Assembly: GCA_937868685.1 (NCBI GenBank)
Contig: CALMMZ010000232.1
Coordinates: forward strand, 1 to 54,085
Reading direction: 5' to 3'
Source: an uncultured bacterium
GTDB lineage: Bacteria; Patescibacteriota; Minisyncoccia; Phycocordibacterales; UBA1006
Length of the DNA: 54,085 bases
Positions 20,819-40,465 of the stretch are shown one piece after another. The position numbers and the translations under genes were made by a program. The number at the start of each line of letters is the position of its first letter. Positions within the stretch are counted from its first letter, which is position 1. The notes below the pieces were generated by a model that was given only the letters and a program-made list of their open reading frames with translations, was not told where the DNA came from and did no database searches.

Positions 20819-21652
20819 ATGGAGAAGTATAATATGGAAATTTCCATTTTAGCGGAAGACTTGCGAAAGGTTAAACTATTTGTTGCCACCCCAATGTATG
20901 GTGGACAGTGTTTTGGAATGTATACCAAAGCAGCATTAGACCTGCAAATGATCTGCGCTCATAGAGGAATAGAAGTCAAGTTTTCTTTCCTGTTCAATGA
21001 AAGTCTAATTACAAGAGCAAGAAACTATATGGTAGATGAATTCCTACGAAGCGGGTTCACTCATATGCTTTTCATTGACTCGGACATTAATTTCAACCCC
21101 GAAGACATTTTGACATTGATTGCACTTGATAAGGACATTATTGGTGGTCCTTATCCTAAGAAGTCAATCAATTGGGGTGCTATCTGGAAAGGTTGCAAGA
21201 AAGTGTTAGCACAACCCAATTTTGATGAATCCAAATGGAACCCTGGAGAGTTAGAAGGCCTCGCCGGGGATTATGTATTTAATCCTGTTCCTGGAACAAA
21301 AGAATTCAGAGTTACTGAACCTCTTGAAGTAATGGAAATTGGTACAGGTTTTATGATGATCAAGAGGTCAGTCTTCCTCAAATTCAAGGATGAATTCCCA
21401 CATCTATCATATAAACCAGATCACATCGGACAACCAAACTTTGATGGATCAAGATACATCCATGCATTTTTTGACACAGTTATTGATCCCAACACCCACA
21501 GATATTTGTCAGAAGACTACATGTTCTGTCAATACTGGAGGTCTATCGGTGGTAAGATTTGGTTGTGTCCATGGATGAAGACTACTCACATTGGTACATA
21601 TGGGTTCCAAGGTGACATGCCAAAAATTGCTGCAATAACCGGAAGTTTGTAG
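20819..21652 (+). CDS. putative GT-A fold glycosyltransferase
   Basis: 277 aa. FVATPMYGG near the N-terminus. ARNYMVDEF and a DxD-like LFIDSDINF. Confidence 0.5.
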   Translation: MEKYNMEISILAEDLRKVKLFVATPMYGGQCFGMYTKAALDLQMICAHRGIEVKFSFLFNESLITRARNYMVDEFLRSGFTHMLFIDSDINFNPEDILTLIALDKDIIGGPYPKKSINWGAIWKGCKKVLAQPNFDESKWNPGELEGLAGDYVFNPVPGTKEFRVTEPLEVMEIGTGFMMIKRSVFLKFKDEFPHLSYKPDHIGQPNFDGSRYIHAFFDTVIDPNTHRYLSEDYMFCQYWRSIGGKIWLCPWMKTTHIGTYGFQGDMPKIAAITGSL

Positions 21653-21699
21653 CACACTCGTTTTTACTAAACATATAAGAAGATTATAAGGAATACAAA

Positions 21700-22383
21700 A
21701 TGAGAAAAGTGATTGGACTGCTAGGTTTTGCCGGCAGTGGTAAAGGAACTGTAGCTGATATTTTGGTGGATCAATATGGTTATACCAAAATATCAATTGC
21801 TGATTCAGTAAAGGATGTTGCATCTGTTTTATTTGGATGGCCCCGAGACTTACTAGAAGGTGACACAAAAGAAAGTCGTGAGTTTAGAGAAACAAAAGAC
21901 TTATTTTGGACTCGCAAACTGGGTTATGATTTTACACCAAGAATGGCACTCCAGAAGATTGGTACTGAAGCAGGTAGGGAAGTGTTTCATCCCGATCTGT
22001 GGATTTTTACTCTTGAGAAAAAACTGGAATATTCAAACAGAATTGTAATTGCAGACACAAGGTTTCCTAACGAGATTCAATTCCTGAAAAATAAAGGTGC
22101 TCAAATTGTAACTGTTACAAGAGGAAATTATCCAGAATGGTATGCCTGGGCAGTAAAACAAAACAGACGAGAACTTTGTTATGATCATATGCAGCAATAC
22201 TATCCCGACGTTCATATTTCCGAATGGGCACGGTTAGGAACAAAGGAAGACTATATTATTCCAAATGAAGGTGATCTAAAAGATTTGGAAAGAGAGGTAA
22301 AATTGTTCTTGCAATGGAAACCAAAACGTGATATTATGACACTATCTGAAAATAAGGAGAACATTTATAATGAAACTATCTGA
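21700..22383 (+). CDS. deoxynucleoside monophosphate kinase-like P-loop kinase (T4 gp1-like)
   Basis: 227 aa. P-loop GFAGSGKGT at the N-terminus. ADTRFPNE motif. Sits before gp45. Confidence 0.6.
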   Translation: MRKVIGLLGFAGSGKGTVADILVDQYGYTKISIADSVKDVASVLFGWPRDLLEGDTKESREFRETKDLFWTRKLGYDFTPRMALQKIGTEAGREVFHPDLWIFTLEKKLEYSNRIVIADTRFPNEIQFLKNKGAQIVTVTRGNYPEWYAWAVKQNRRELCYDHMQQYYPDVHISEWARLGTKEDYIIPNEGDLKDLEREVKLFLQWKPKRDIMTLSENKENIYNETI

Positions 22384-24717: not shown

Positions 24718-24725
24718 CTAAATAT

Positions 24726-24751
24726 ATTTGTCGCAGTTGTCTGCGACAAAT
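24726..24751 (+). promoter_or_regulatory. perfect 11-bp stem-loop abutting the SD of the HNH gene
   Basis: ATTTGTCGCAG-ttgt-CTGCGACAAAT. The GGAGG SD begins at 24752, and no U-tract follows. Confidence 0.7.
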
Positions 24752-24761
24752 GGAGGTTAGG

Positions 24762-28009: not shown

Positions 28010-28544
28010 GACACACCCAGACATTGAACTACCAAAGTTTCAGACAGAGCAAAGTGCCTGTTTTGATATTTGCTTTAGACAAGATGGTAAAACTCACTAT
28101 GAGGGATTTAATTCTTTCAATTCACCAATAAAGAGAAATTTCTCCACCGCTTCAATTCATATTGCTTCCGGCGAAAGAGTTATGGTTCCTACCGGTTTGA
28201 TCATGGATATCCCTGAAGGATACTCAGTCAGAGTCCATCCAAGGTCTGGTCTATCATTCAAGAAAGGTATTATTCTTGCGAATTTGGAAGGTATTGTTGA
28301 CTCGGATTATGTTGAGGAACTATTCCTGCTTATCCACAATACCTCATTGCTTGGGATTACTTTCCAGAATGGTGACAGACTTGCTCAGGGGGAATTGATT
28401 AAGTTGGAAACATACACAATGGAAGAAACTACCGAACGTCCTGCTAAGAAGACCAGCAGGGATGGTGGTATGGGTTCCACTGGTGTTTCAAAGGAAAAAA
28501 AGGTCAAGACTGAGAAAAAGCTTGACAAAGAAGAAGCAGTATAG
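27987..28544 (+). CDS. dut: dUTP pyrophosphatase (trimeric dUTPase) with Lys-rich C-terminal tail
   Basis: Motifs SACFDI, HPRSGLSFKKG, GIVDSDY and RDGGMGSTG. The ATG at 27987 is preceded by GAGGTGA. Confidence 0.85.
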   Translation: MTKLKFYKTHPDIELPKFQTEQSACFDICFRQDGKTHYEGFNSFNSPIKRNFSTASIHIASGERVMVPTGLIMDIPEGYSVRVHPRSGLSFKKGIILANLEGIVDSDYVEELFLLIHNTSLLGITFQNGDRLAQGELIKLETYTMEETTERPAKKTSRDGGMGSTGVSKEKKVKTEKKLDKEEAV

Positions 28545-28552
28545 TATAAATA
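28545..28552 (+). promoter_or_regulatory. T4-type late promoter (exact TATAAATA)
   Basis: Exact TATAAATA right after the dut stop, 92 nt upstream of the hsp20 ATG. Confidence 0.5.
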
Positions 28553-28643
28553 CAGAGTTGGGGTGATAGGTGTTGCGTTCCCCAACCACTTGCCTAATGG
28601 GAGTGGAAAACACCAAAACTTGCTTAAAGAGGAGTTTAAAAGC

Positions 28644-29111
28644 ATGACAAACGATCTAGATAAAATTTGGCCTTCCCTAACAAAGGGTGCTATTGGTTTT
28701 GATGACCTTGTGAATAGAATCAAGAAATTCAATGCAGGAACACTTCCAACTGTTCCAACATACCCACCTTACAATATCAAGAAGACCGATGAAAACACCT
28801 ATGTCATTGAAGTGGCATTAGCAGGGTTTTCAAAGAACGATATTACACTTGAATTGAGGGACAGTACCCTGGTAATTTCAGGATCCATCAAGTCGAATGA
28901 ACAGAATGATTATATCTTTAATGGTATCGCAGACAGAGCATTTACACATAGATTTACTCTCGCTGATACAATCGAAGTTAAGAATGCTGATCTGATTAAT
29001 GGTATGCTGAAGATTTGGTTAGAAAAGTTTATTCCAGAATCTTCTAAACCAAAGATCATCGACATTAACGATGGTTCGGAAACAAAGTCAAAGAAAAAAG
29101 ACGTTGCTTAA
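28644..29111 (+). CDS. hsp20: small heat-shock protein (Hsp20/IbpA family)
   Basis: PPYNIKKTDENTYVIEVALAGFSKNDITLELRDSTLVISG vs IbpA [22 protein letters not shown].... The ATG at 28644 follows an AGAGGAG SD. Confidence 0.9.
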   Translation: MTNDLDKIWPSLTKGAIGFDDLVNRIKKFNAGTLPTVPTYPPYNIKKTDENTYVIEVALAGFSKNDITLELRDSTLVISGSIKSNEQNDYIFNGIADRAFTHRFTLADTIEVKNADLINGMLKIWLEKFIPESSKPKIIDINDGSETKSKKKDVA

Positions 29112-29125
29112 TTTGAAGTAATTTG

Positions 29126-29154
29126 AAAGGCGGGCCCGCAAGGCTCGCCTTTTT
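29126..29154 (+). terminator. intrinsic terminator after hsp20
   Basis: GGCGGGCC-cgcaa-GGCTCGCC stem with one G-U pair, flanked by AAA and TTTTT. Confidence 0.8.
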
Positions 29155-29190
29155 GACTAAATACCTCAAACCACTAAAGAGGGACAAATA

Positions 29191-30030
29191 ATGAGCACCA
29201 TTAGCATACCATTACAACTACAAACCTACCTAAAGAAAAACGGATTCTATAAGGGTGCCCTTGATGGGAAACTAGGATCAAGCACATATGATGCTATCGC
29301 ATTAGCAATCCAAGCACAAGGTGTCAACACCAAGGGTTGGAACAAAAAGAGATTATATACAGGTGGCCAGCAAGTTCTATTCAGAGCAAATAAAATCGAA
29401 ACAGGTATTGTTGATGGCAAAGAAGGTCATGTAACAGAATACGCAAGAGAAAAGTTCCTTGCACTGATCACCATAAACTATGTTGATGAAACGGAGAAGT
29501 TGGTAGATGTAGGTGCAATTAAACCTGTTCCCGTGAAAGTTTCCTCTTCTGCAATTTCTTCATCACACTGGCCACTACAAAAGAATTGCACTTCATTTTA
29601 TGGCAAACCAGGATCAAATCAGGTAGATGCGATCATGCCATATCCATTGCGTGTTGCATGGGACTTGAAGTCAACTGTTAAGAAATTCAGTGTTCACAGA
29701 CTAGTGAAGGTGAACATTGAAAGAGTCTTTCAAAGAACCCTTGATTACTATGGTTATGAAAGAATTAAGGAACTGCACCTTGATCTTTGGGGTGGTTGCC
29801 TAAATGTTCGTAAGATGCGTGGAGGAAAGAATTACTCTATGCACTCTTGGGGTATTGCAGTTGACATGGATCCAGATAGAAATGGATTCAAGACTTCATG
29901 GAAGAATGCGGAATTCTCTAAACCTGCTTACAAGCAGTGGGTTCAATTTTGGTATGATGAAGGTGCTATCAATCTTGGTCTAGAGAGAAACTTTGATCCT
30001 ATGCACTTTCAGTTTGCACGTTTGAGATAA
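29191..30030 (+). CDS. endolysin: peptidoglycan-binding domain + M15-type zinc peptidase
   Basis: The N-terminal LQTYLKKNGFYKGALDGKLGSSTYDAI is a PG_binding_1-like motif. The C-terminal HSWGIAVDMDP ... DPMHFQ gives M15-like His/Asp/His zinc ligands. Confidence 0.75.
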   Translation: MSTISIPLQLQTYLKKNGFYKGALDGKLGSSTYDAIALAIQAQGVNTKGWNKKRLYTGGQQVLFRANKIETGIVDGKEGHVTEYAREKFLALITINYVDETEKLVDVGAIKPVPVKVSSSAISSSHWPLQKNCTSFYGKPGSNQVDAIMPYPLRVAWDLKSTVKKFSVHRLVKVNIERVFQRTLDYYGYERIKELHLDLWGGCLNVRKMRGGKNYSMHSWGIAVDMDPDRNGFKTSWKNAEFSKPAYKQWVQFWYDEGAINLGLERNFDPMHFQFARLR

Positions 30031-30045
30031 GAAAGGTTTTATATT

Positions 30046-30483
30046 ATGGAAAATTATGTTTCGGAAAGATCACTTGAATTGCAGGAAATGGCATTGATAC
30101 GAATTAAACAACTGCAATCAGAAGTGGATGCAATGATTACTGAAGCAGGCGGAGCCCCAGGTGGACAAATCAAAGACTTTAAGTTACTGTCTAAGGAAAA
30201 ACTCCTAGAGGCCGCAGCAAAACTACAGGAAGTGGATGATCTTTTCATTAAATTCTGTCCAATACAGAGTATCGTTAAGGAAGTTCAGGAAACTACACAT
30301 TGCATCCAAGATATGGTGGATTTGATTACTGAATCTGATATAGCAGTTCAGGGTGAAATTGAACAACTAAGTGAATTGATCCAGAAGATGAAAGCATCGG
30401 GAAAAACAGATACAGAAATTCTTGATGAACTTGAATCAGTTATGAAACATATCATTGAGTATTGTAAGACTGGGTGGAGATAA
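30046..30483 (+). CDS. hypothetical acidic helical protein
   Basis: 145-aa ORF. Confidence 0.55.
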   Translation: MENYVSERSLELQEMALIRIKQLQSEVDAMITEAGGAPGGQIKDFKLLSKEKLLEAAAKLQEVDDLFIKFCPIQSIVKEVQETTHCIQDMVDLITESDIAVQGEIEQLSELIQKMKASGKTDTEILDELESVMKHIIEYCKTGWR

Positions 30484-30484
30484 T

Positions 30485-31045
30485 ATGAGTAGTTTGAGAA
30501 ATTTTTGTATGATTACAAAAGATGCGTTGGATGTTAGGGTTTGTGATGAATTGATTGAAGTCTTCAAAGCAAACCCCGACTACCATGAAAGATATGATAA
30601 TAATGGTACCCCAAATTTCACGCAACTAAATCTCACAAAACATAAAGAATTGATTCCTGAAATTCAGGCATATCTGTCTTGGCAGGCCTGGGGTTTACTA
30701 CAAACATATAAGGAATCAGTATCAGAAACCAAATACTGGCCTGAACAATATATGTTTGAAGAATTCAGAATCAAACATTACAAGGGGGATGGTCACGATC
30801 AATTTGATATGCATGTGGACGCAATCTCAGCATCCACCGCAAAAAGGTTCTTTGCTTTCTTCTGGTATCTGAATGATGTTGAAGAAGGTGGTGAAACAGT
30901 ATTCCCAACCCTTGATCTGGTTGTTAAGCCAACCAAGTCAACCAGTTTCATGTTTCCACCATTGTGGTTATATCCACACAGAGGAAACCCAGTAACAAAA
31001 GGTGAAAAGTACCTATTGAGTTCATACCTACATTATATGGAGTAA
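30485..31045 (+). CDS. 2OG-Fe(II) oxygenase (prolyl 4-hydroxylase-like)
   Basis: IKHYKGDGHDQFDMHVD contains an HxD. GGETVFP and a distal His in LYPHRGNPV. The ATG at 30485 follows GGAG. Confidence 0.7.
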   Translation: MSSLRNFCMITKDALDVRVCDELIEVFKANPDYHERYDNNGTPNFTQLNLTKHKELIPEIQAYLSWQAWGLLQTYKESVSETKYWPEQYMFEEFRIKHYKGDGHDQFDMHVDAISASTAKRFFAFFWYLNDVEEGGETVFPTLDLVVKPTKSTSFMFPPLWLYPHRGNPVTKGEKYLLSSYLHYME

Positions 31046-31047
31046 TT

Positions 31048-31794
31048 ATGGAAGTTAAAGTATTACCCACGGTGGTGGTGATCACACCCACCATCGGCCA
31101 GGATTCGCTTGAAAAAGCAATTGAATCTGTCAAAAATCAAACATATACAAATATCAGACACCTGATTGTTATTGATGGCCCACACTATTATGGAACAGCT
31201 CTCAATATAATCGATAAGAATATGTCCAGTGAGCATAATGTTATGATTGCAACTCTACCAGAAAATACTGGTGCAAACGGTTTCTATGGTCATAGAGTAT
31301 ATGCAGCATTCCCACATCTAGTCAATGAAGACCTTGTTGCCTTTCTTGACGAGGATAATTGGTGGGATCCAGATCACATTCAAAGTCTAGTCGATACATT
31401 TAAGGAAAATAAGGATTGTGCATGGGTTCACTCATTGCGCAAAGTATATGTTGGTGATGAATTCCTAGCAAATGATTGCTGTGAATCTATTGGTAGATGG
31501 CCTATTGCATGGACAGCAGATAGAAACGATCCTGAATATCTTGTTGACACATCTTCCTATCTTTTTCATCGCGAATTCATAAAACAGACCTGTCATTTGT
31601 GGCATTGGGGTTGGGGTGGTGATAGACGATTCTTTATGTTGGTAAAAGATGCTGCACCCTATGCAACCTCAGGAAAGCATACATTGAATTACAAGTTGCC
31701 AGATATGAACAAGGCATATGGTGGTCAAATGGACATTTTTGAAAAGTACAATGAAGAAACAAAACGAAAATATGGAGGATATCCTTGGAATTAG
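31048..31794 (+). CDS. family 2 glycosyltransferase
   Basis: VVVITPTIGQDSLEKAIESVKNQTY is a typical GT2 N-terminus. DxD-like FLDEDNWW. Confidence 0.8.
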   Translation: MEVKVLPTVVVITPTIGQDSLEKAIESVKNQTYTNIRHLIVIDGPHYYGTALNIIDKNMSSEHNVMIATLPENTGANGFYGHRVYAAFPHLVNEDLVAFLDEDNWWDPDHIQSLVDTFKENKDCAWVHSLRKVYVGDEFLANDCCESIGRWPIAWTADRNDPEYLVDTSSYLFHREFIKQTCHLWHWGWGGDRRFFMLVKDAAPYATSGKHTLNYKLPDMNKAYGGQMDIFEKYNEETKRKYGGYPWN

Positions 31795-32438
31795 TAACTC
31801 TTAAGATAATCGAGGGAAACCTCCAATCACAGTGTCGCCAAGATGAATGGGTTTTGGAAGAAACAAACAAGAAACGAAACGGATATTTTGTAGAATTCGG
31901 TGCAACAGATGGTAAGACGATTAGCAACACCTATGGTCTTGAAAAAGACTATGGGTGGACTGGTATCGTAGCAGAGGCAAATCCAATATACAAGGATGCA
32001 TTGATTGCTAATAGATCATGCGCAATCTATACAGGTGCAGTATATACCCATGATGATGGTGTGAAATTCAATATGACCGTTGCTTCTGATCTATCAACCA
32101 TTAGTGGTTATGGTACAGATGATGAACATGCAATCAATAGACTTTCGGGGAATCTTATCAATGTTGAAACATGCACCTTGAGACAGTTGCTTGAACGTAA
32201 TGACGCACCAACAAATATCGACTATATATCTATAGACACAGAGGGCAGTGAATATGACATCCTTAAGTGTTTCTTTGATGATCCACAGTCAGACAAATAT
32301 AATGTTCAGTTATTTACTGTTGAGCATAATTTTACTCCAGCAAGAGAGAAAATTAAAGGACTGATGGAAGAACAAGGATATGAGAGAGTAAGAACTGACA
32401 TATCCAGATTTGATGATTTTTATAGGAAGAAAATATGA
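31785..32438 (+). CDS. FkbM-family methyltransferase
   Basis: SQCRQDEWVLE ... GYFVEFGATDGKTISNTYGLEKDYGWTGIVAEANP fits the FkbM pattern. Confidence 0.7.
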   Translation: MELVTLKIIEGNLQSQCRQDEWVLEETNKKRNGYFVEFGATDGKTISNTYGLEKDYGWTGIVAEANPIYKDALIANRSCAIYTGAVYTHDDGVKFNMTVASDLSTISGYGTDDEHAINRLSGNLINVETCTLRQLLERNDAPTNIDYISIDTEGSEYDILKCFFDDPQSDKYNVQLFTVEHNFTPAREKIKGLMEEQGYERVRTDISRFDDFYRKKI

Positions 32439-33319
32439 GCAAGACTGCAATAATTGGTGGTGCTTCTGGCTACACCTGGAACGATTTGAAGTATTGGGTG
32501 AATTCTATTAGACAAACTGATTTTGATGGTGATATTGTTATTGTTACTGACAATATGACAGTTGAAACTCAGGACAAGTTACTTGAAAAGAATGTTCTTA
32601 TCCATGCATTTGGAAATAGAAATTCTGAAGGTAATGTAGTAAATCTAGAGAAGAATTTACCTCCCCATGTATCTAGGTTTTTCTACATTTGGGATTTTCT
32701 AAATCGAAATGAATATGATATAGTTACAGTAACAGATACTCGTGACGTTATCTTCCAAAGCAATCCAGATACCTATTTGAGATTCTTTTCACTCGGTAAT
32801 ATTGTTGGATCCAAAGAAGGATTGACTTATGAAAATGAACCTTGGGGTAAATCAAATCTCTTCCAGTCTTTTGGGCCATACTTCTATAATAGGATTAAGG
32901 ATAAGGAAATTTTGAATGTTGGTGTTATTGGTGGTGATGCAGCTTCCATTAAGGACCTAATGCTTTTAATTTTCCAGTTGAGTTTTAATAGACCAATTCC
33001 AATTGTAGACCAGGCAGTCTATAATTTCATTCGATATGAATTTGAAAAATCATTCCACTTTATGGATAACGAGAGTCCATGGGCAATTAATCTTGGTACC
33101 ACTATCGAGGCAGTAAAGGCGGGATATGGTGATCTTGGGCAAGCTTGCCGATATGATCATAAGTTACTTGAAAAGTACGAAAAAGATTACCTACTCATGC
33201 AACCAGTAATTAAAGGTGATACTGTGATGAATTCTGATGGTGGACAATATTATGTGGTGCATCAATACGATAGAGTACCAAAACTAAAAGATATGATCCA
33301 AATTAAGTATGGAGACTGA
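32435..33319 (+). CDS. hypothetical protein, possible nucleotide-diphospho-sugar transferase
   Basis: 294 aa within the glyco-island. VTVTDTRDVIFQSNP is a DxD-like acidic motif. This is a weak assignment. Confidence 0.35.
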   Translation: MSKTAIIGGASGYTWNDLKYWVNSIRQTDFDGDIVIVTDNMTVETQDKLLEKNVLIHAFGNRNSEGNVVNLEKNLPPHVSRFFYIWDFLNRNEYDIVTVTDTRDVIFQSNPDTYLRFFSLGNIVGSKEGLTYENEPWGKSNLFQSFGPYFYNRIKDKEILNVGVIGGDAASIKDLMLLIFQLSFNRPIPIVDQAVYNFIRYEFEKSFHFMDNESPWAINLGTTIEAVKAGYGDLGQACRYDHKLLEKYEKDYLLMQPVIKGDTVMNSDGGQYYVVHQYDRVPKLKDMIQIKYGD

Positions 33320-33320
33320 T

Positions 33321-33884
33321 ATGAATAATGACGTTGGTATGATGCTCAAAGACCCCGAGTTATATACCGTTAAAGAAAAGATGACTGTGCAAATGTGGCC
33401 ACCTTCAATCGATAATGTTGCTGATAGCATGATGCCATATGTCAATAGAATGGCAGCACCCGTCAGAATTCTCATTGTGGGAACATTCAATGGTGAAGCA
33501 GCATATCGTTTCCTAGAATTGGATGAAAAGAAAAAGATAGGTGAAATAGTTTCCTTAAGTATCACAGACGACGAAATCCCATTTAACATAACTGCGGAAA
33601 GAAACCTGCAAGGAAAGGACGTTGTTCTCGGAACAAGTATTCCCGAAACAGAGTTATTTGACCTGGTATTTGTAAATTCGGAAACTAAGATTCCACTTGA
33701 CAGTCTTTATGAAAAATACTATAATAACGTCAAAGTAGGTGGTATCATCTGTGGAAATGATCACCACAAAGAAAAGGTGCGGGAATATTTGGCAGTTTTT
33801 ATGAGGGAAAAGAAATTAGGACTATCCCTGAATATTTCCAATAGAACAGTGTGGTTTTTATATAAGCACGCAAGGAGAGGTTAG
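33321..33884 (+). CDS. class I SAM-dependent methyltransferase-like protein
   Basis: ILIVGTFNGEAAYRFLE is glycine-rich and motif I-like. DLVFVNSE and GGIICGNDH. The ATG at 33321 follows GGAGA. Confidence 0.5.
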   Translation: MNNDVGMMLKDPELYTVKEKMTVQMWPPSIDNVADSMMPYVNRMAAPVRILIVGTFNGEAAYRFLELDEKKKIGEIVSLSITDDEIPFNITAERNLQGKDVVLGTSIPETELFDLVFVNSETKIPLDSLYEKYYNNVKVGGIICGNDHHKEKVREYLAVFMREKKLGLSLNISNRTVWFLYKHARRG

Positions 33885-33885
33885 T

Positions 33886-34236
33886 ATGGAATTACCATTG
33901 ACAACAATCAATACATATCCTGTGGAACTTTTCAAAACAGACAAGATCAAAACATTGGTTGACAATAAAAGGTGTTTTATTATATTGGGAGAGCCCAGCA
34001 GCTCAAATCTTATCGATGTGGATAAGATTGTAGGTGTTGTAAATGAACTGAAAGAAGACAAAGAAGATTTAATCGTTGATTTTAATGTATTGAAAACTCC
34101 AATGGGAACATTGTTCCAAGCTTTGTTTGACAACAATGCAAAAATAGCATTGCGTCCTTGTGGTGTTGGGCAAGTCGATCTTAATAACAACGTAACTGAA
34201 TATACACTCAACTATTTTTGGATTGATGCAGCATGA
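33886..34236 (+). CDS. truncated, catalytically inactive paralog of prohead protease gp21
   Basis: KRCFIILGEPSSSN...VLKTPMGTLFQALFDNNAKIALRPCGVGQ aligns with gp21 NRAFGELGHPDTPS...VLDTPMGNIVKGLLDGGACLGVSTRGVGS. His is replaced by Glu and Ser by Arg. Confidence 0.7.
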   Translation: MELPLTTINTYPVELFKTDKIKTLVDNKRCFIILGEPSSSNLIDVDKIVGVVNELKEDKEDLIVDFNVLKTPMGTLFQALFDNNAKIALRPCGVGQVDLNNNVTEYTLNYFWIDAA

Positions 34237-34268
34237 AAACAGCGTTGGTATTAGGAGCAGGTGGATAA
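34233..34268 (+). pseudogene. orphan 5' stub of an SDR (epimerase) gene: MKTALVLGAGG*
   Basis: The ATG overlaps the stop of the upstream ORF (ATGA). The 11 codons match the N-terminus of the functional gene at 34948 (KTALVCGAGG) and stop exactly within the GxxGxxG motif. Confidence 0.7.
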
Positions 34269-34289
34269 AGGTTTCAATTTTACTAAATA

Positions 34290-34309
34290 CTCCTGTGTAA
34301 CAACAGGAG
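34290..34309 (+). promoter_or_regulatory. hairpin sequestering the SD of the GIY-YIG gene
   Basis: CTCCTGT-gtaaca-ACAGGAG. The 3' arm contains the AGGAG SD, 7 nt before the ATG at 34316. Confidence 0.65.
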
Positions 34310-34315
34310 ATACAA

Positions 34316-34960
34316 ATGGAAAAAACCGGATTTATCTATATTTGGTATGATCGCAAACACAAAAAATACTATATCGGAAGTCATTTAGGGACAGAAGATG
34401 ATGGTTATGTTTGTTCATCTAGGTGGATGCGTCAATCTCACAAGCGCAGACCACAAGACTTTAAGAGAAGGATCCTTCAGAGAAATATCAGTAAAGAAGT
34501 GCTAAAAGAAGAAGAACATAAGTGGTTGAAGTTAATTAAAAATGATGAATTGGGTAAAAAATACTACAACTTAACCATTGCTTTGAACGGCAATGGTTGG
34601 GAAAAAGGAAAAGAACGATCTGAAAAAACAAAGAAGAAAGTTAGTGATGGTGTTAAACGTGCGTGGGAAGACGGTAGACTCAATAAAGAACTTTGTGGTA
34701 AAAAAGGAACTGTTCCCTGGAATAAAGGAAAAACTGGAATTTATTCTGAGGAAACTAAACAAAAACTTCGTGATGCAAGAAAGAAGCAAGTATTTTCTCT
34801 AGAAGCAATTGAAAAAAGAACATCTAAACTTCGGGGTAAGAAGCGAAGAAAAGAAGATATAGACAAGATGGTACAAACAAAAAAGGAACGCAGAGAAGCA
34901 GGACTTTATAAACCTGTGATTCCGTGGAACAAAGGATTGAAATTGAAATGTCAAAATTAA
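34316..34960 (+). CDS. GIY-YIG homing endonuclease with NUMOD3 repeats
   Basis: GFIYIWYDRKHKKYYIGSH gives GIY...YIG. PWNKGKTG and PWNKGLK are NUMOD3-like. Lys-rich. The 3' end overlaps the start of the epimerase gene by 13 nt. Confidence 0.9.
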   Translation: MEKTGFIYIWYDRKHKKYYIGSHLGTEDDGYVCSSRWMRQSHKRRPQDFKRRILQRNISKEVLKEEEHKWLKLIKNDELGKKYYNLTIALNGNGWEKGKERSEKTKKKVSDGVKRAWEDGRLNKELCGKKGTVPWNKGKTGIYSEETKQKLRDARKKQVFSLEAIEKRTSKLRGKKRRKEDIDKMVQTKKERREAGLYKPVIPWNKGLKLKCQN

Positions 34961-35973
34961 AGACCGCCCTGGTTTGTGGTGCTGGAGGATTTATAGGCAA
35001 CCACATGGTGAATAGGTTAGTCAAAGAAGGGTATTGGGTAAGAGCAGTAGACCTGAAGGAACCAGAATACTCAAAGACAAATGCAGATCATTTCATTATC
35101 AGAGATTTGCGTGATGCCAGAGAAGTAAGTGAGTTAATATCATATGCAGGTTGTCTAAGAAATCCTAACCAGTTATTTTCAAGAGAATTTGATAAGGGGT
35201 TTGATGAAATCTATCAATTTGCAGCAGATATGGGTGGTGCTGGATTTGTATTCACAAAAGAGCATGATGCAGAAATCATGCATAACTCTGCCACAATCAA
35301 TCTGAATGTCCTTGATGCATTGAGCAAAAGAAAAGATGGTCATAAGACTAAGATTTTCTATTCATCTTCTGCTTGCATCTATCCAGAATACAATCAATTG
35401 AATCCAGACAATCCAAAATGCGATGAAGCAAGTGCATATCCTGCAATGCCTGATAGTGAATATGGTTGGGAAAAACTCTTTAGTGAAAGACTATATGATG
35501 CATATCGTAGAAATTATCACCTTCAGACATATGTTGCTAGGTTTCATAATATCTATGGACCCTTGGGAACATGGCAAGGTGGTAGAGAAAAATCACCAGC
35601 AGCAATTTGCAGAAAAGTAATCAAGGCAACAGATCAAATTGAAGTATGGGGTGATGGTAAGCAAACTCGATCATTCCTGTATATCGATGATTGCATTGAT
35701 GCAGTTAGATTACTTATTAATTCCAATTTCAGAGGACCAGTAAATATTGGTTCAGAAGAAATGGTAACTATCAATGAATTGGTTAATACTGTCAAGTCCA
35801 TTGCAGGTAAGAATGATCTAAAGGTTGTTCATGTTGAAGGACCTCAGGGTGTCAGAGGAAGAAACTCTGACAACGAATTGATTGAAGCAAAGTTGGATTG
35901 GCATCCAAATGTATGTCTCTATGATGGTTTGAAAAGAACCTATAAGTGGATTGAGGAACAGGTTAATGGATAA
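34948..35973 (+). CDS. GDP-mannose 3,5-epimerase-like SDR
   Basis: GAGGFIGNH. SSSACIYPEYNQL, YGWEKL, RFHNIYGPLGTWQGGREKSPAAICRK, WGDGKQTRSF and GVRGRNSDNELI closely parallel plant and bacterial GME as I recall it. Confidence 0.8.
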   Translation: MSKLKTALVCGAGGFIGNHMVNRLVKEGYWVRAVDLKEPEYSKTNADHFIIRDLRDAREVSELISYAGCLRNPNQLFSREFDKGFDEIYQFAADMGGAGFVFTKEHDAEIMHNSATINLNVLDALSKRKDGHKTKIFYSSSACIYPEYNQLNPDNPKCDEASAYPAMPDSEYGWEKLFSERLYDAYRRNYHLQTYVARFHNIYGPLGTWQGGREKSPAAICRKVIKATDQIEVWGDGKQTRSFLYIDDCIDAVRLLINSNFRGPVNIGSEEMVTINELVNTVKSIAGKNDLKVVHVEGPQGVRGRNSDNELIEAKLDWHPNVCLYDGLKRTYKWIEEQVNG

Positions 35974-36178
35974 ACCAAATTTAGACACAATGTATAGTGC
36001 CTATTTGGATGGCACACTACAGGATTATTGTACCAAACATGATTTAGATTTTGTATTGGTAAATATGGTTATGAAACACTGGCCTACTGCATTGGCCCAT
36101 GGTATTATTCATGGTTGGCCAACAACCGAACAAGTTGAGGAGATTACAAAAAATGCATCCACCAAAAAAGAAGATTAA
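35966..36178 (+). CDS. hypothetical protein
   Basis: 70-aa ORF. The ATG is preceded by GAGGAA and overlaps the epimerase stop. Confidence 0.45.
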   Translation: MDKPNLDTMYSAYLDGTLQDYCTKHDLDFVLVNMVMKHWPTALAHGIIHGWPTTEQVEEITKNASTKKED

Positions 36179-36383
36179 ATGTGTGTTACATAATTGGTCT
36201 CCTTGGAGAAGAATACAGAATGGAGCAGGCACAGAAACTAGAATTTGCGAAGACTGCCACATAACAGAAACCAGACAATCTAAAATAAAGTATGATGCGG
36301 TTTACTTAGCAACCATGGAAGCAAGTAAAGAATTGGAAACATTGAGAGAAACTTTAGAGAAAAAAGATGAAACCATTACTTAA
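36153..36383 (+). CDS. hypothetical Cys/His-containing small protein
   Basis: 76 aa from the ATG behind GAGGAG. CVLHNW...ICEDCH is a possible zinc-ribbon-like pattern. Confidence 0.45.
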   Translation: MHPPKKKIKCVLHNWSPWRRIQNGAGTETRICEDCHITETRQSKIKYDAVYLATMEASKELETLRETLEKKDETIT

Positions 36384-37254
36384 ACTTGGGTTCACAGATA
36401 CATTTGGTGCCATTGAAGAATTCTTTACTGAAACACTTTCTACAGAATTTGAAATTGTAAGAGACGATGAAAATCCAGACTATCTCATTTTTGGAGATAG
36501 GAATTTTGGGGAGAACAATTTAAGGTATGACGAAACTAAGTGTATTAAGATTTTTTACACGGGAGAGAACCAGAGGCCTTACAATTATCGATGCCATTAC
36601 GCTATTAGCTTCGATCACGATGATAATGGCCGTAACTATAGGCTACCCCTTTATGTAATATATGATTGGGACAACAAGCGAAAGAAGGTAAACAATTCCA
36701 AGACCTTTGCTAGAACTTCCTACTCAATGAGCAAACATGAATTCGAGCAAAGAAAGTTTTGCTCATTTGTTGTCAAGAATGGTGGTTGTCAAAAGAGAAA
36801 TGACTTCTTCCATATGTTGAGTGAATATCAACCAGTCGATGCAGCAGGACCACTATTCAACAATGTTGGATACATACTAGAAGGTGGTGAAAGGGCAGTG
36901 CAGACAAAGTTGGAGTTTCTACCAAAATATCGGTTTAATCTCTGCTTTGAGAATTCATCCTATCCAGGTTACGCAACAGAAAAACTTTATGAAGCAATGA
37001 TGGGTAACACAATTCCTATCTATTGGGGAAGTCCAACTATTGAAATGGACTTCAACCCAGATGCATTCCTAAATTGGCATGACTATGGTAATGACGACGA
37101 TTTTATAGAAGCAATTAAAAGAGTAAATGAGGACTACTATCTCTACCAGGATATGTATTGTCAACCACTCTTTGGCAGAAAAAACAAATTTATGGACTTG
37201 AGTAAATTTGTAAGTTGGTTCATGCTAAACGTGTATAAGGGATCGGGATTATGA
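36367..37254 (+). CDS. GT10-family glycosyltransferase (alpha-1,3-fucosyltransferase-like)
   Basis: FCSFVVKNGGCQKRNDFF...PVDAAGPLFNN and RFNLCFENSSYPGYATEKLYEAMMGNTIPIYWG match the hallmark FucT motifs. Confidence 0.8.
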   Translation: MKPLLKLGFTDTFGAIEEFFTETLSTEFEIVRDDENPDYLIFGDRNFGENNLRYDETKCIKIFYTGENQRPYNYRCHYAISFDHDDNGRNYRLPLYVIYDWDNKRKKVNNSKTFARTSYSMSKHEFEQRKFCSFVVKNGGCQKRNDFFHMLSEYQPVDAAGPLFNNVGYILEGGERAVQTKLEFLPKYRFNLCFENSSYPGYATEKLYEAMMGNTIPIYWGSPTIEMDFNPDAFLNWHDYGNDDDFIEAIKRVNEDYYLYQDMYCQPLFGRKNKFMDLSKFVSWFMLNVYKGSGL

Positions 37255-37451
37255 GCACATTTATTTGGGTGCTTGTCACATGGACAGCATTTAGTTTCAT
37301 ATATGCTTTCTTCATAGCAGACAGAATTCCCGACGGTTTATTTTGGTTCATACTTGATTTTATCATTGCTGCACCAGCAATAATAATTATGATAGCATGT
37401 GTCGTATTATACGAAACTATAGATAACTTTTTTAATAGGAGAAAAAAATGA
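37251..37451 (+). CDS. small two-TM membrane protein
   Basis: 66 aa with two hydrophobic helices and a basic C-terminus (NRRKK). ATGA overlaps on both sides. Confidence 0.6.
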   Translation: MSTFIWVLVTWTAFSFIYAFFIADRIPDGLFWFILDFIIAAPAIIIMIACVVLYETIDNFFNRRKK

Positions 37452-37642
37452 AGTATCTAGTTATGGCAATTGCAACATTTGGTTTGGTTGCATGTAAGGA
37501 AGACAGTGGTGTTCACTTGGGAACATTCAAGGCAGACTGTGCAGCAAAACAAGGAACACTTGCTGAAGTTGCCGGTTCGCCAAACGAATATACCTGCACA
37601 CTACCAGACGGTTCAGTATTGAAGACAACTGAAAAGAAGTGA
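37448..37642 (+). CDS. small lipoprotein
   Basis: MKYLVMAIATFGLVAC is a signal peptide with a lipobox. 64 aa. Confidence 0.65.
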   Translation: MKYLVMAIATFGLVACKEDSGVHLGTFKADCAAKQGTLAEVAGSPNEYTCTLPDGSVLKTTEKK

Positions 37643-37643
37643 C

Positions 37644-38375
37644 ATGAATAAAGCATTGATCATTACACCTACTGGGTGTCCTTATTTTCTCGATGAAGAA
37701 TTTGATAAGGATAATCATTGGGTATTCAGAAAACCTGGAAGATCGTTTGAAACTTGTGCTGTGATCTTCAACGATTTTGAACCAGAACCTGGAACATATG
37801 ATATGGTCATTCACCATAAAGGTAGGAAATGGTCAATGCTTCCAGAAATTGCAAACAAAGTGAAATGGGAAAATTATGACTACATTGCTTATTTTGATGA
37901 TGATTATTGTACTGATATTCAGTCAATCGAGACGGCGTTAAGTATTGCAAGAAGACATGATATGGGATACTTTCAACAGAGCTTGACATCCTGGACGGTT
38001 TACCCTATACTAGAGCACAATCCCGATTTTGTATTTACGGAAACTAATTTTACGGAACTTGGAGTACCTTTCTTCCGGAATGATATATTCCGAAAGGTAC
38101 TCCGTTTCTTTACAGATTATAAACCAGGAAATGCGGAATGGGGAATGGATAAGGTGTTATGTTTCTATTTGCAGATGAACGCCCATATTATCCATGCAAG
38201 TAAAATCAAGCATATGAGACGTGAAAGTTCCTATGATAAAACAGAAGGTTTCCGAGAAATGGATTACCTGATGCGGGAATGGTTCCCAAAGTATATGAAA
38301 GACAAATTCAACCTAGATTATCAGTATGATGATCGACAGGTTGAATTTGCAGGTCTAAAGAAGGTTTCATCATGA
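37644..38375 (+). CDS. hypothetical protein, DUF707-like (possible glycosyltransferase)
   Basis: 243 aa. YDYIAYFDDDY acidic motif. The overall pattern recalls DUF707. Weak assignment. Confidence 0.4.
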   Translation: MNKALIITPTGCPYFLDEEFDKDNHWVFRKPGRSFETCAVIFNDFEPEPGTYDMVIHHKGRKWSMLPEIANKVKWENYDYIAYFDDDYCTDIQSIETALSIARRHDMGYFQQSLTSWTVYPILEHNPDFVFTETNFTELGVPFFRNDIFRKVLRFFTDYKPGNAEWGMDKVLCFYLQMNAHIIHASKIKHMRRESSYDKTEGFREMDYLMREWFPKYMKDKFNLDYQYDDRQVEFAGLKKVSS

Positions 38376-38632
38376 AATTAGAAGATATTACAAGAGTTAG
38401 TATTTTGGCACGATTACTAAACGAAGCAAAAATGCAGTTGGATACATTAAAGTCAAAAAAATTCAAAGAGACTATAATTGTAACAATGTATGAAGATGGT
38501 GCTAGAGATTTACCACCAGTCACCTTCAACATTCGTTTTGATGAAGCTTTACATAAATCATTGGTCAGATCAATGGAAGAAAGAATTGAAAGGTTGGAGA
38601 ATGACATAATTGATTGTGGAGTTGAACTATGA
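38372..38632 (+). CDS. hypothetical protein
   Basis: 86-aa ORF with overlapping start and stop codons shared with its neighbours. Confidence 0.5.
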   Translation: MKLEDITRVSILARLLNEAKMQLDTLKSKKFKETIIVTMYEDGARDLPPVTFNIRFDEALHKSLVRSMEERIERLENDIIDCGVEL

Positions 38633-38856
38633 CGCTATATTATCAGTGCAGACTTGAACAAAAGACAGATGAAGGTATCATCCACCAGGTTGCGTGGATT
38701 GAGGAAAAAGGCGCAAAGCACGGACTTAGAGTCCAATTGATTGGTGAGGAAGGTCTTTGGGAAGTGAAAACAGTATCTCAACCGGGTATGAATAAGGTTG
38801 ATATTCACAATCACAAGACAGCAAAGGGTCTTAAGTCAATCCATTTTTCGAGGTAA
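38629..38856 (+). CDS. hypothetical protein
   Basis: 75-aa ORF with an ATGA overlap with the upstream ORF. Confidence 0.5.
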   Translation: MTLYYQCRLEQKTDEGIIHQVAWIEEKGAKHGLRVQLIGEEGLWEVKTVSQPGMNKVDIHNHKTAKGLKSIHFSR

Positions 38857-38859
38857 ATT

Positions 38860-39225
38860 ATGACAGTTGCAGCATTTTTATATGATAACTACTATTGTTG
38901 GAGTCCCAAAAAGTCTTTCGCTGGTGTTTTTGCTGATGTGGACGAAGCAAAAGAATCACTTAGAGGTGGTAGATATGAAAAGCAAAATCTAGAGACTTTA
39001 AATTTGGATACATATGAGTTTTTGAGGTTTGTATGGAATCCTATTTATGAGAGGAAAGAAGAAGACGGAAAAGAATTCTTCAAACTGAGTTACAAAAACG
39101 GCGGTAATGCACCTGAACCAGAATGGATAGAAGCTGAATATTGGCCACCTAGTGCCAAAGATGGAAGATATAGTACAGAAACACAAGCAAAATATGATGC
39201 TGGATTTTGGAGTGGAAATGACTAA
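38860..39225 (+). CDS. hypothetical protein
   Basis: 121-aa ORF. Confidence 0.55.
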   Translation: MTVAAFLYDNYYCWSPKKSFAGVFADVDEAKESLRGGRYEKQNLETLNLDTYEFLRFVWNPIYERKEEDGKEFFKLSYKNGGNAPEPEWIEAEYWPPSAKDGRYSTETQAKYDAGFWSGND

Positions 39226-39432
39226 ACGAGTATTATTGACGGGTGGAGCAGGTGGAAAAATCCAGATTTTAGAAAAAATCAAATCGAAAAGAAAAAGTTA
39301 ATGTGGTCTACAGGAGAATTTATGGGTAATAAAGGAAAATCGTGGTTTACTGACGGAACAAAAAATATAATGTTAGCATCAAATGATGTAATTCCGAAAG
39401 GATTTTATAAAGGGAGAGTATTTCATGGTTAA
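39218..39432 (+). pseudogene. orphan SDR 5' stub (MTKRVLLTGGAGG...) plus decayed homing-endonuclease remnant
   Basis: A 27-codon ORF begins by overlapping the stop of the upstream ORF and copies the dehydratase N-terminus. The following 43-codon ORF ends NKGKSWFTDGTKNIML...IPKGFYKGR, a pattern typical of HEG C-terminal DNA-binding tails, and overlaps the dehydratase ATG. Confidence 0.55.
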
Positions 39433-40465
39433 GCGCTGTCTCCTGACAGGTGGAGCTGGGTTTATAGGCCACCACATTATTGATTTGTTCCTAGAAAAGA
39501 CCGATTGGGAGATTGTATCTCTTGATCGGTTGGACTATTCTGGAAACCTAAACAGGTTACACAGTGTTCTAGAGAAGTATCCTAAAGAAACACAACAAAG
39601 ACTTAAGGTGGTATGGCATGATCTAAAGGCGCCCATATCAGACCTAACCAAGAATTTCATTGGTGATCCAAATATTATCCTGCACCTTGCAGCATCCAGT
39701 CATGTTGATAGGTCTATCACTCACCCAATGGAATTTGTGATGGATAATACTGTGGGAACAGTAAACGTTCTAGATTTTGCAAGAGGTTTAAAGAACCTTG
39801 AACGTATGATCTATTTCAGCACAGATGAAATCTTTGGTATTGCACCTCCTGGTGTATCGTACAAGGAACGTGACAGATATAACTCAACCAACCCCTATTC
39901 TGCTTCCAAAGCAGCAGGTGAGGAATTCTGTGTTGCCTATGAAAATACCTATAAACTTCCAATCTTCATTACTCATTGCATGAATGTCTTTGGTGAACGT
40001 CAACACCCAGAGAAGTTCATTCCATTGTGTATTAGGAAGATTAGAGACTCAGAAAAGATTTTCATCCATAGTGATTCAACACGTACAATCCCTGGGTCAA
40101 GATTCTATATACATGCAAAGGATGTGGCAGATGCAATTCTGTTTATATTAACTCTATCACCTGAAAACTTGAAAACAATTTACACACCAGATTGGGGTGG
40201 TGCAAAATGCCCCAAGTTCAATATTGTTGGTAAGGAAGAAATCAATAACCTTGAATTGGTAAAGATGATCGCAAATGCACAAGGTAGAACACCTATCTGT
40301 GAAATGGTTGACTTCCATTCATCCAGACCTGGTCATGATTTGAGGTATGCACTTGATGGTGGGTATATGAAAAGTCTGGGTTGGGAACCAAGGTTTAGTC
40401 TTCAGGAAAGAATCAGTGAAGTGACTGAATGGTCACTTGCAAACAAAGAATGGATTGAAATATGA
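39425..40465 (+). CDS. rfbB: dTDP-glucose 4,6-dehydratase
   Basis: GGAGFIGHH. YSASKAAGE (YxxxK). HCMNVFGERQHPEKFIP. RPGHDLRYALD is characteristic of RfbB/RmlB. Confidence 0.85.
   Translation: MVKRCLLTGGAGFIGHHIIDLFLEKTDWEIVSLDRLDYSGNLNRLHSVLEKYPKETQQRLKVVWHDLKAPISDLTKNFIGDPNIILHLAASSHVDRSITHPMEFVMDNTVGTVNVLDFARGLKNLERMIYFSTDEIFGIAPPGVSYKERDRYNSTNPYSASKAAGEEFCVAYENTYKLPIFITHCMNVFGERQHPEKFIPLCIRKIRDSEKIFIHSDSTRTIPGSRFYIHAKDVADAILFILTLSPENLKTIYTPDWGGAKCPKFNIVGKEEINNLELVKMIANAQGRTPICEMVDFHSSRPGHDLRYALDGGYMKSLGWEPRFSLQERISEVTEWSLANKEWIEI

Follow-up and report, generated by a model that had tools for sequence, protein, structure and literature searches.

An endonuclease gene and a replacement gene head at the start of a phage epimerase gene: a probable homing cassette

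The 54,085-nt stretch of contig CALMMZ010000232.1, referred to hereafter as the window (GC content 37.7%), originates from an uncultured T4-like myovirus and includes a homing endonuclease gene lodged at the 5' end of a gene for a sugar-nucleotide enzyme of the short-chain dehydrogenase/reductase (SDR) type. The parts of this arrangement, and those of the second cassette described below, lie on the plus strand. The arrangement is preceded by an open reading frame (ORF) of 116 aa without family match (33886..34236, called ORF116 below). Its TGA overlaps an ATG within the sequence ATGA, so that the frame opened by this ATG is translationally coupled to ORF116. This second frame is an orphan stub of 11 codons, MKTALVLGAGG, closed by a TAA at 34266..34268 (34233..34268 with the stop). 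Then comes a free-standing homing endonuclease gene of 214 aa (34316..34960), the last 13 nt of which overlap the ATG, at 34948, of a functional GDP-mannose-3,5-epimerase-like (GME-like) SDR gene of 341 aa (34948..35973; Pfam Epimerase, 2e-37). The best solved relative of its product is the Arabidopsis GDP-mannose 3',5'-epimerase (PDB 2C59, 1.8e-89), and the next enzyme class follows at 7e-25. The functional gene opens MSKLKTALVCGAGGFIGNH; its first 14 codons (34948..34989, MSKLKTALVCGAGG) are overlapped by those last 13 nt of the endonuclease gene, and they encode the peptide of the stub a second time with other codons. Across the last ten codons of the stub, 20 of 30 nt are identical between the two copies, and the differences fall mostly on third codon positions. 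A preliminary description of this locus had already reported the short frame in the ATGA overlap, the recurrence of its peptide in recoded form and the intact endonuclease gene with its 13-nt overlap, all of which are confirmed from the sequence. It also called the endonuclease gene AT-rich, but this is the case only slightly (34.9% GC vs 37.7% for the window).

The origin of the stub can be read from a close relative. An IMG/VR contig (L001), found by a search with the ORF116 protein, shares 98% identity with the window in 28085..34266 and spans just the first 536 nt of the epimerase gene. ORF116 is encoded there with 95% identity, directly 5' of an intact epimerase gene and without any homing endonuclease gene (HEG) between the two. 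The ATGA overlap is followed by ATGAAAACAGCGTTGGTATTAGGAGCAGGTGGA|TTCATTGGAAACCACATGGTGAATAGG…, i.e., by the stub sequence running uninterrupted into the epimerase body; after the end of ORF116, the epimerase start of this type reads ATGAAAACAGCGTTGGTATTAGGAGCAGGTGGATTCATTGGAAACCACATGGTGAATAGG…, and the naive junction contains GGAGCAGGTGGATTCATTGGAAACCAC. The stub of the window and the real epimerase start of L001 are identical at 33 of 33 nt. Because stub sequence and epimerase body are joined in L001, the endonuclease gene and the second 5' end are an insertion in the window, and the stub consists of the native first 11 epimerase codons followed by a TAA belonging to the cassette. The preliminary description had proposed precisely such an alignment with a HEG-less relative, and its claim that the insertion lies inside the GxxGxxG-coding 5' end is borne out by the uninterrupted GAGG|FIG codons of L001.

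The inserted cassette measures 724 nt (34266..34989) and stands between the second Gly codon of GxxGxxG and the Phe codon (GAGG|FIG). The BLAST alignment with L001 stops at 34266 and restarts at 34978, and the junction is ambiguous by 3 nt, the GGA present in both copies. The same site is thus found without the cassette in L001 and with it in the window and in an independent assembly (L103), between flanks that are 98% identical. An assembly chimera is ruled out by L103, which has the arrangement of the window, and by 12 further diverged loci. Likewise, a chance resemblance of the stub to an epimerase start is ruled out, as all 33 nt agree with L001 and stubs recur at other loci (see below).

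The sequences on either side of the insertion differ in what they retain. On the left, the last ~400 nt show one single-nucleotide polymorphism (SNP) and one 15-nt indel between the window and L001. On the right, the cassette is directly followed by a tract with three synonymous differences (34990..34998; TTT ATA GGC in the window, TTC ATT GGA in L001). Then, one difference is found in ~80 nt, followed by a mosaic patch of ~115 nt (35082..35196) that is ~35% diverged from L001, including amino-acid changes, with near-identity on both sides and identity beyond it. In this comparison of two alleles, the candidate markers of co-conversion are therefore the three synonymous changes in 9 nt and the 115-nt patch on the right, and none on the left. 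The tract at 34990..34998 may be co-converted donor sequence. From these two alleles, the patch at 35082..35196 may either stem from the cassette donor by discontinuous conversion or reflect unrelated mosaicism. The differences directly to the right of the junction rule out that L001 is a recombinational revertant of a genome like that of the window, as would arise from a crossover between the stub and the replacement copy. Two further differences were noted along the left flank. The 15-nt indel is in frame, lies near the end of ORF116 (34199..34213) and is present in the window and L103 and absent from L001. Farther upstream, ~21 mismatches are packed in one 250-nt bin (32585..32835) of a glycosyltransferase-like ORF (32435..33319), the flank being otherwise 98-99% identical.

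The endonuclease comprises an N-terminal GIY-YIG domain and NUMOD3-type DNA-binding repeats. It matches PHROG 314 'homing endonuclease' at 9e-14 and contains the motif GFIY-x10-YIG (G5-F-I-Y8 … Y19-I-G21). Y8, Y19 and G21 are invariant among 30 homologues, as are R45, R51, E67, E78 and N85 downstream of the motif, and every residue invariant across these homologues is kept in the window. The latter five are candidates for the counterparts of the catalytic R27, E75 and N90 of I-TevI. The AlphaFold model has a predicted local distance difference test (pLDDT) score of 84-94 over residues 1-90, and its top three PDB matches in Foldseek are the catalytic domain of I-TevI (1LN0/1MK0; probability 0.98-1.0, target-normalised template-modelling (TM) score 0.59, E = 0.02-0.06). 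Pfam PF01541 does not match the window protein at E <= 1 and matches 6 of the 30 relatives (best 7.6e-4), and a sequence-profile search of the PDB with the endonuclease returned no match. As the PF01541 signal is too weak, membership of the GIY-YIG type rests on the motif, the fold and PHROG 314. For NUMOD3, the window protein scores 19.3 bits vs a cut-off of 20.4, and the domain is matched by 29 of the 30 relatives, best at 4e-27. The GIY-YIG/NUMOD3 identity given in the preliminary description is thus upheld by the motif, PHROG 314, the predicted fold and the relatives, and not by PF01541 or by an above-cut-off NUMOD3 match in this protein. An I-TevI-like GIY-YIG endonuclease with NUMOD3 is supported, with a catalytic fold that is predicted.

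From 5' to 3', the cassette is made up of the in-frame stop, a CTAAATA box, a hairpin, the endonuclease gene, an overlapping ribosome-binding site and ATG, and the replacement codons. The CTAAATA box (34283..34289) resembles a T4-type late promoter (TATAAATA) and, by this analogy, is a putative late promoter of the endonuclease gene. The hairpin CTCCTGT-GTAACA-ACAGGAG (34290..34309; -11.4 kcal/mol, z = -5.5) holds the endonuclease Shine-Dalgarno sequence GGAG (34306..34309) in its 3' arm. Homologous hairpins, with differing stems and compensating changes, are present in nine of ten folded cassettes (z = -3 to -7.7), and TAAATA stands directly 5' of the hairpin in nine out of ten; the promoter sequence TATAAATA is perfect in L105 and L123, two of the loci described below. 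Such leaders are known from I-TevI, I-TevII, I-TevIII, segB and Aeh1 mobE, in which late transcripts begin inside the hairpin and thereby free the ribosome-binding site (PMC2988022). CTAAATA is also found 32-34 nt upstream of two other ATGs of the window (24718, 29157). At both places (24718..24752 and 29157..29193), the distance matches that in the endonuclease leader, and a hairpin comes next, with the ribosome-binding site inside it or adjoining it (TTTGTCGCAG…CTGCGACAAA; CCTC…GAGG). The design of CTAAATA plus hairpin is probably a late-promoter/translational-control module of the phage's own. The spacer from the stop to TAAATA (12-15 nt; 34269..34282 in the window) is conserved in the diverged cassettes L105-L118 as A-R-G-T-x-Y-C-A-R…, e.g., AGGTTTCAATTT and AAGTTTCAGTTT. 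By analogy with I-TevI, it might be an autorepression operator; alternatively, it might be a promoter-upstream element.

The cassette of the window is not isolated, as its design recurs in at least 13 further independent loci. Genomic context was taken for 12 homologues of the endonuclease with 57-99% identity, and in 12 of 12 the endonuclease gene overlaps an SDR gene at its start. Wherever the upstream sequence can be read, the locus has a stub of its own; its last codon is the same Gly codon (±1 nt), and TAA, TAG or TGA follows. Including a more distant case mentioned below (L123), such same-codon stubs are seen in L105-L109, L111, L113, L115, L117, L118 and L123. Stubs closed by a stop read MAKQKYALVLGAGG in L105, MMKLKTALVLGAGG in L106, MTETKRALVLGAGG in L108, MKTTLKTALVLGAGG in L111 and MKTALVLGAGG in L117. 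The stub of L107 is built like those of the other loci with one extra T that puts the stop out of frame, and an extra T has the same consequence in L113 and L118. In the 12 loci, stub and replacement head are identical at 15-24 of 30 nt, with the protein motif kept, and thus differ in the manner of diverged homologues. The replacement heads are 12-17 codons long across the family, and each brings a start codon (ATG or GTG) and a ribosome-binding site of its own. They co-vary with the endonuclease: the heads of L106 and L107 are similar, whereas their stubs are dissimilar.

Two kinds of SDR genes are targeted. Class A cassettes sit in the GME-like epimerase gene, whereas class B cassettes sit in a dTDP-glucose-4,6-dehydratase-like SDR gene located some genes farther downstream within the same glycan-modification cluster (L109/110, L113/114, L115/116 and L118, with stubs that include MTKRVLLTGGAG, MRKRMLITGGAG and MSKRVLITGGAG). 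Leader and catalytic domain are ~85% identical in nucleotides between the two classes, whereas the C-terminal DNA-binding regions differ. A screen of 69 more distant IMG/VR family members returned one more class B case, L123, with an endonuclease that is 44% identical. In this automated screen of 69 endonuclease loci, the stub design was found at no kind of gene other than SDR genes; one match, L167, was spurious. Relatives with the same catalytic domain and without stub occur as ordinary intergenic genes in the cultured phages phiM7 and RHph_I1_18 and in L002.

The genes preceding the cassettes are variable. Five unrelated genes precede class B cassettes, and the genes upstream of cassette-bearing SDR genes are in general unrelated or 25-50% identical to each other. 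As the upstream genes differ, the SDR 5' end, i.e., the stub region, is the only left-hand homology that the loci have in common. This sequence pattern suggests a functional role for the stub within the element. Near-identical class B cassettes are preceded by a 75-aa ORF, an N6/N4 DNA methyltransferase gene and the 121-aa ORF of the window at 38860..39225 (L109, L110 and the window). As the identity begins ~14 nt before the class B stub ATG, the recombination boundary falls right at the stub.

Naive loci were sought among 80 IMG/VR epimerase loci (<=73% aa identity). None of the 80 carries an endonuclease cassette. No 5' end close to the cassette-borne one was found among them in a search for a donor, the best reaching 31 of 39 nt, and BLAST of the other cassette-bearing loci against the same 80 gave no close HEG-less partner.

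The window also includes a decayed class B cassette (39218..39460, in the context 38860..40465). It starts with a second stub (39218..39252), the native start of the 4,6-dehydratase-like SDR gene (MTKRVLLTGGAG), which is 94% identical to the stub of L109. This stub is also translationally coupled to its upstream gene and is fused to other sequence. Then follow a remnant of a second, paralogous endonuclease gene, reduced to its 3' ~180 nt (39253..39432), and the dTDP-glucose-4,6-dehydratase-like SDR gene (39425..40465; NCBIfam TIGR01181 at 6e-71, below the curated cut-off). The latter begins with a cassette-borne replacement start (39425..39460, MVKRCLLTGGAG) that is nearly identical to those of L109 and L110. 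L109, which is 99.8% identical from 39253 on, retains the intact version, with a stop, CTAAATAC, a hairpin and a 230-aa endonuclease (P0010). With respect to L109, a 566-nt deletion in the window took the leader and ~171 codons.

At a third site, the situation is reversed. The L001 genome (L174, 2436..3215) carries a 245-aa paralogue of the endonuclease, with 43% identity, in a 780-nt intergenic insertion that also includes CTAAATAC and a hairpin. The corresponding site of the window (21643..21667, between the ORFs 20819..21652 and 21700..22383) is empty, and its flanks are 98-99% identical. The paralogue of the L001 genome and the window thus form a reciprocal presence/absence polymorphism. 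Gains and losses are seen at three endonuclease sites within the same phage species, and one phage population shows the naive, invaded and decayed states.

The window of this T4-like myovirus codes for a scaffold protein, a major head protein, a UvsW-type helicase, a gp46-like protein, a DNA polymerase and a gp41-type helicase. Pelagibacter phage Mosig, Methylophilales phage Melnitz and cyanophages have major capsid proteins that share 63-65% identity with that of the window. Both endonuclease targets are housed in a glycan-modification cluster (31785..40465) that includes a methyltransferase-like ORF, a glycosyltransferase-like ORF, the GME-like epimerase gene, an alpha-1,3-fucosyltransferase (FucT) gene (GT10, 36367..37254) and the 4,6-dehydratase-like SDR gene. 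The gene order of this cluster is common to the window and other cassette-bearing contigs.

Taken together, the arrangement is very probably a mobile, intron-less homing endonuclease cassette placed within the 5' part of the coding sequence of a phage SDR gene. Because it carries a portable replacement gene head, the cassette is tolerated inside coding sequence. We infer cleavage, the timing of expression and homing itself by analogy with the Seg and Mob endonucleases of T4 and with I-TevI. Early in infection, read-through transcripts would fold the hairpin and leave the endonuclease untranslated. Late transcripts starting just downstream of TAAATA, within the 5' arm of the hairpin, would free the ribosome-binding site. 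In a mixed infection, the enzyme would then cut alleles that lack the endonuclease, at the GG|F codons or close to them, and the break would be repaired from the cassette-bearing genome, thereby copying the cassette in. The stub, together with any related upstream DNA, would serve as the left repair arm and the epimerase body as the right one. The epimerase would then be made from the cassette's own start, and later decay of the endonuclease would leave a stub and a replacement head, as at 39218..39460.

On balance, we incline to a broader proposal, namely that these loci represent an undescribed class of viral homing elements, for which 'gene-head replacement cassette' would be a fitting term. 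In such elements, a GIY-YIG endonuclease would colonise the Rossmann GxxGxxG codons, the coding stretch most conserved in genes for SDR sugar-nucleotide enzymes, by carrying a promoter, a stop for the displaced head, and a portable start and N-terminus. The stub would be the left homology arm for spread between phages with unrelated upstream genes, and the DNA-binding domain would have diversified for the same codon in two paralogous enzymes.

Several points weigh against an actively homing cassette. The right-hand conversion tract consists only of three SNPs in 9 nt plus an ambiguous patch, and the epimerase site offers a single HEG-less/HEG-bearing pair. The role of CTAAATA as a late promoter rests on the T4 analogy and on three occurrences in the window. 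The replacement copy rebuilds a contiguous target-like sequence, a difficulty for self-immunity. The preliminary description had presumed that recoding makes the resident copy resistant to cleavage, but as a general rule this is not upheld: over the 12 nt before the junction, stub and replacement are identical at 12 of 12 positions in L105 and at 11 of 12 in L117, where the last base differs. The third Gly codon is GGT in 64 of 80 naive genes, in 7 of 7 stubs and in 3 of 8 cassette copies (p = 0.012, in a small, non-independent sample), a weak hint in the sequences that the cassette copies may avoid the target. Finally, the endonucleases diverge between phages by as much as their neighbours do (52-73% aa for the endonuclease, 65-74% for the epimerase, 60-69% for FucT). 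Long co-residence accounts for such a pattern at least as well as frequent transfer between lineages would. With the endonuclease as diverged as the neighbouring genes, the association is old, and spread has probably been mostly within lineages.

This last point is also an argument for a different history, in which the insertion is a domesticated fossil. It would have arisen once by illegitimate recombination and been inherited vertically, without homing today; the endonuclease would be inactive or have another role, e.g., in phage exclusion or autoregulation, and the presence/absence pattern would reflect loss alone. Besides the divergence that tracks neighbouring phage genes, the identical left junction of all members fits a single origin, and the 566-nt loss at the second cassette shows that deletion does happen. 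We nevertheless regard this history as improbable. The three synonymous differences right of the junction mean that L001 is no simple revertant formed between stub and replacement, and the endonuclease ORF is intact with all family-invariant residues. Moreover, the cassettes are patchy, with 0 of 80 at the IMG/VR epimerase loci, so that very many independent precise losses would be needed without re-invasion, and both gains and losses are found at three endonuclease sites in the same phage species.

It is far less probable that the stub is a functional small ORF, such as a leader peptide or a coupling device through which either the endonuclease or the epimerase is regulated. In favour of this, stubs are present throughout, translation of both window stubs is coupled to the gene before them, and in most members a stop codon comes directly after the stub. 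However, its sequence is that of the start of the resident gene, as expected of a remnant, and neither its length nor its termination is conserved, as the three members with an extra T run on out of frame and the stub of the second window site is fused to other sequence. An element acting at the level of RNA or translation, with the stub as the first exon of a group I intron or as the take-off site of a bypass like that of T4 gene 60 (GGA-TAA to the downstream GGA), is hardly credible even though the stub ends with GGA and a stop, coding resumes after GGA as at the take-off and landing codons of gene 60, and GIY-YIG genes are often housed in group I introns: an Rfam scan of 33000..36500 gave nothing above noise for known RNAs, with no group I intron match even at E <= 10, the non-ORF sequence of the insert (47 nt 5' and 29 nt 3' of the endonuclease ORF) is too short to hold an intron core, 724 nt would have to be bypassed where gene 60 has 50 nt, L106, L108, L111 and L117 have unlike putative take-off and landing codons, the stop is out of frame in L107, L113 and L118, and the replacement head has its own start codon and ribosome-binding site in every member, ATG in the window. 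The cassette is therefore intron-less, as the preliminary description had it.

If the homing cassette is accepted as the preferred reading, its interest lies in the way in which a coding sequence is entered. Entry of homing endonucleases into conserved coding DNA is, to our knowledge, known only under the shield of an intron, intein or bypass element or where a split of the gene is tolerated. Head replacement would be a further route by which they could reside inside essential coding sequence in viruses. Short frames passed over in annotation 5' of endonuclease genes may be displaced gene starts of this kind. The proposal also predicts two groups of enzymes that recognise Rossmann-motif DNA, with sites conserved in thousands of SDR genes, which may be of interest for nuclease engineering. 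With naive, invaded and decayed states in one population, these phages would provide a compact natural system for studying the homing cycle, as well as endonuclease-driven mosaicism in the glycan-modification clusters of aquatic T4-like phages. In full-text literature on phage endonucleases with epimerases and on N-terminal duplication, no description of the arrangement was found, which is not proof of novelty; a gene-head-replacing arrangement appears to be undescribed for viruses.

Among known systems, the nearest in mechanism are the intronless homing endonucleases of T4-like phages, of the Seg (GIY-YIG) and Mob (HNH) types, such as SegF, SegG, SegB and MobE. Like them, the endonuclease described here is a free-standing gene in a T4-like genome, without intron or intein, with presence/absence polymorphism among close relatives; as in the Seg proteins, an I-TevI-like catalytic domain is combined with modular DNA-binding repeats. 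By this analogy, it would work as a Seg-type free-standing GIY-YIG endonuclease. Unlike Seg and Mob genes, which are intergenic and cut a neighbouring gene, the cassette sits inside the coding sequence of its target and gives it a new start and N-terminus. A late-promoter box and a hairpin sequestering the ribosome-binding site are common to the cassette, I-TevI, segB and Aeh1 mobE (PMC2988022). The catalytic domain of I-TevI, encoded in the td intron, is the best structural match for residues ~1-95 and has the GIY..YIG motif and the same late-promoter/hairpin control. However, the two proteins are only 21-23% identical, I-TevI is intron-encoded, and it binds DNA with a zinc finger and a helix-turn-helix, whereas NUMOD3 repeats are present here.

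Endonuclease genes within critical conserved coding stretches, accompanied by a device that preserves function, are also known from T4 mobA/gene 60, Aeh1 nrdA-mobE and the 'fractured genes' with split inteins. These rely on translational bypassing, split polypeptides or trans-splicing inteins, whereas duplication and replacement of the head here yield a single full-length polypeptide. A review of T4 mobile elements describes gene-splitting insertions only (mobE/nrdA, mobA/gene 60-39, seg43(25)) and never mentions duplication (PMC2988022).

The closest formal analogue is found in fungal mitochondria. The mobile ORFs (mORFs) of Allomyces macrogynus (atp6) and Glomus (atp6, atp9, cox2, nad3) bring a replacement C-terminus to the gene they invade (PMC3630166). 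As in the phage cassettes, the endonuclease ORF moves together with a duplicate of part of the host gene, the original part stays behind as a remnant nearly identical to the gene of a relative, and the inserted part is diverged in DNA and conserved in protein (PMC3630166). The mORFs are organellar, and their ORF is often in phase with the host gene, whereas the endonuclease of the phage cassette has an ORF of its own, in another frame than the new start with which it overlaps. The cassette also differs by its defined stop, putative promoter and hairpin leader. Above all, mORFs replace the 3' end of a gene, and the cassette is their mirror image at the 5' end, where the element must bring a ribosome-binding site and a start codon of its own.

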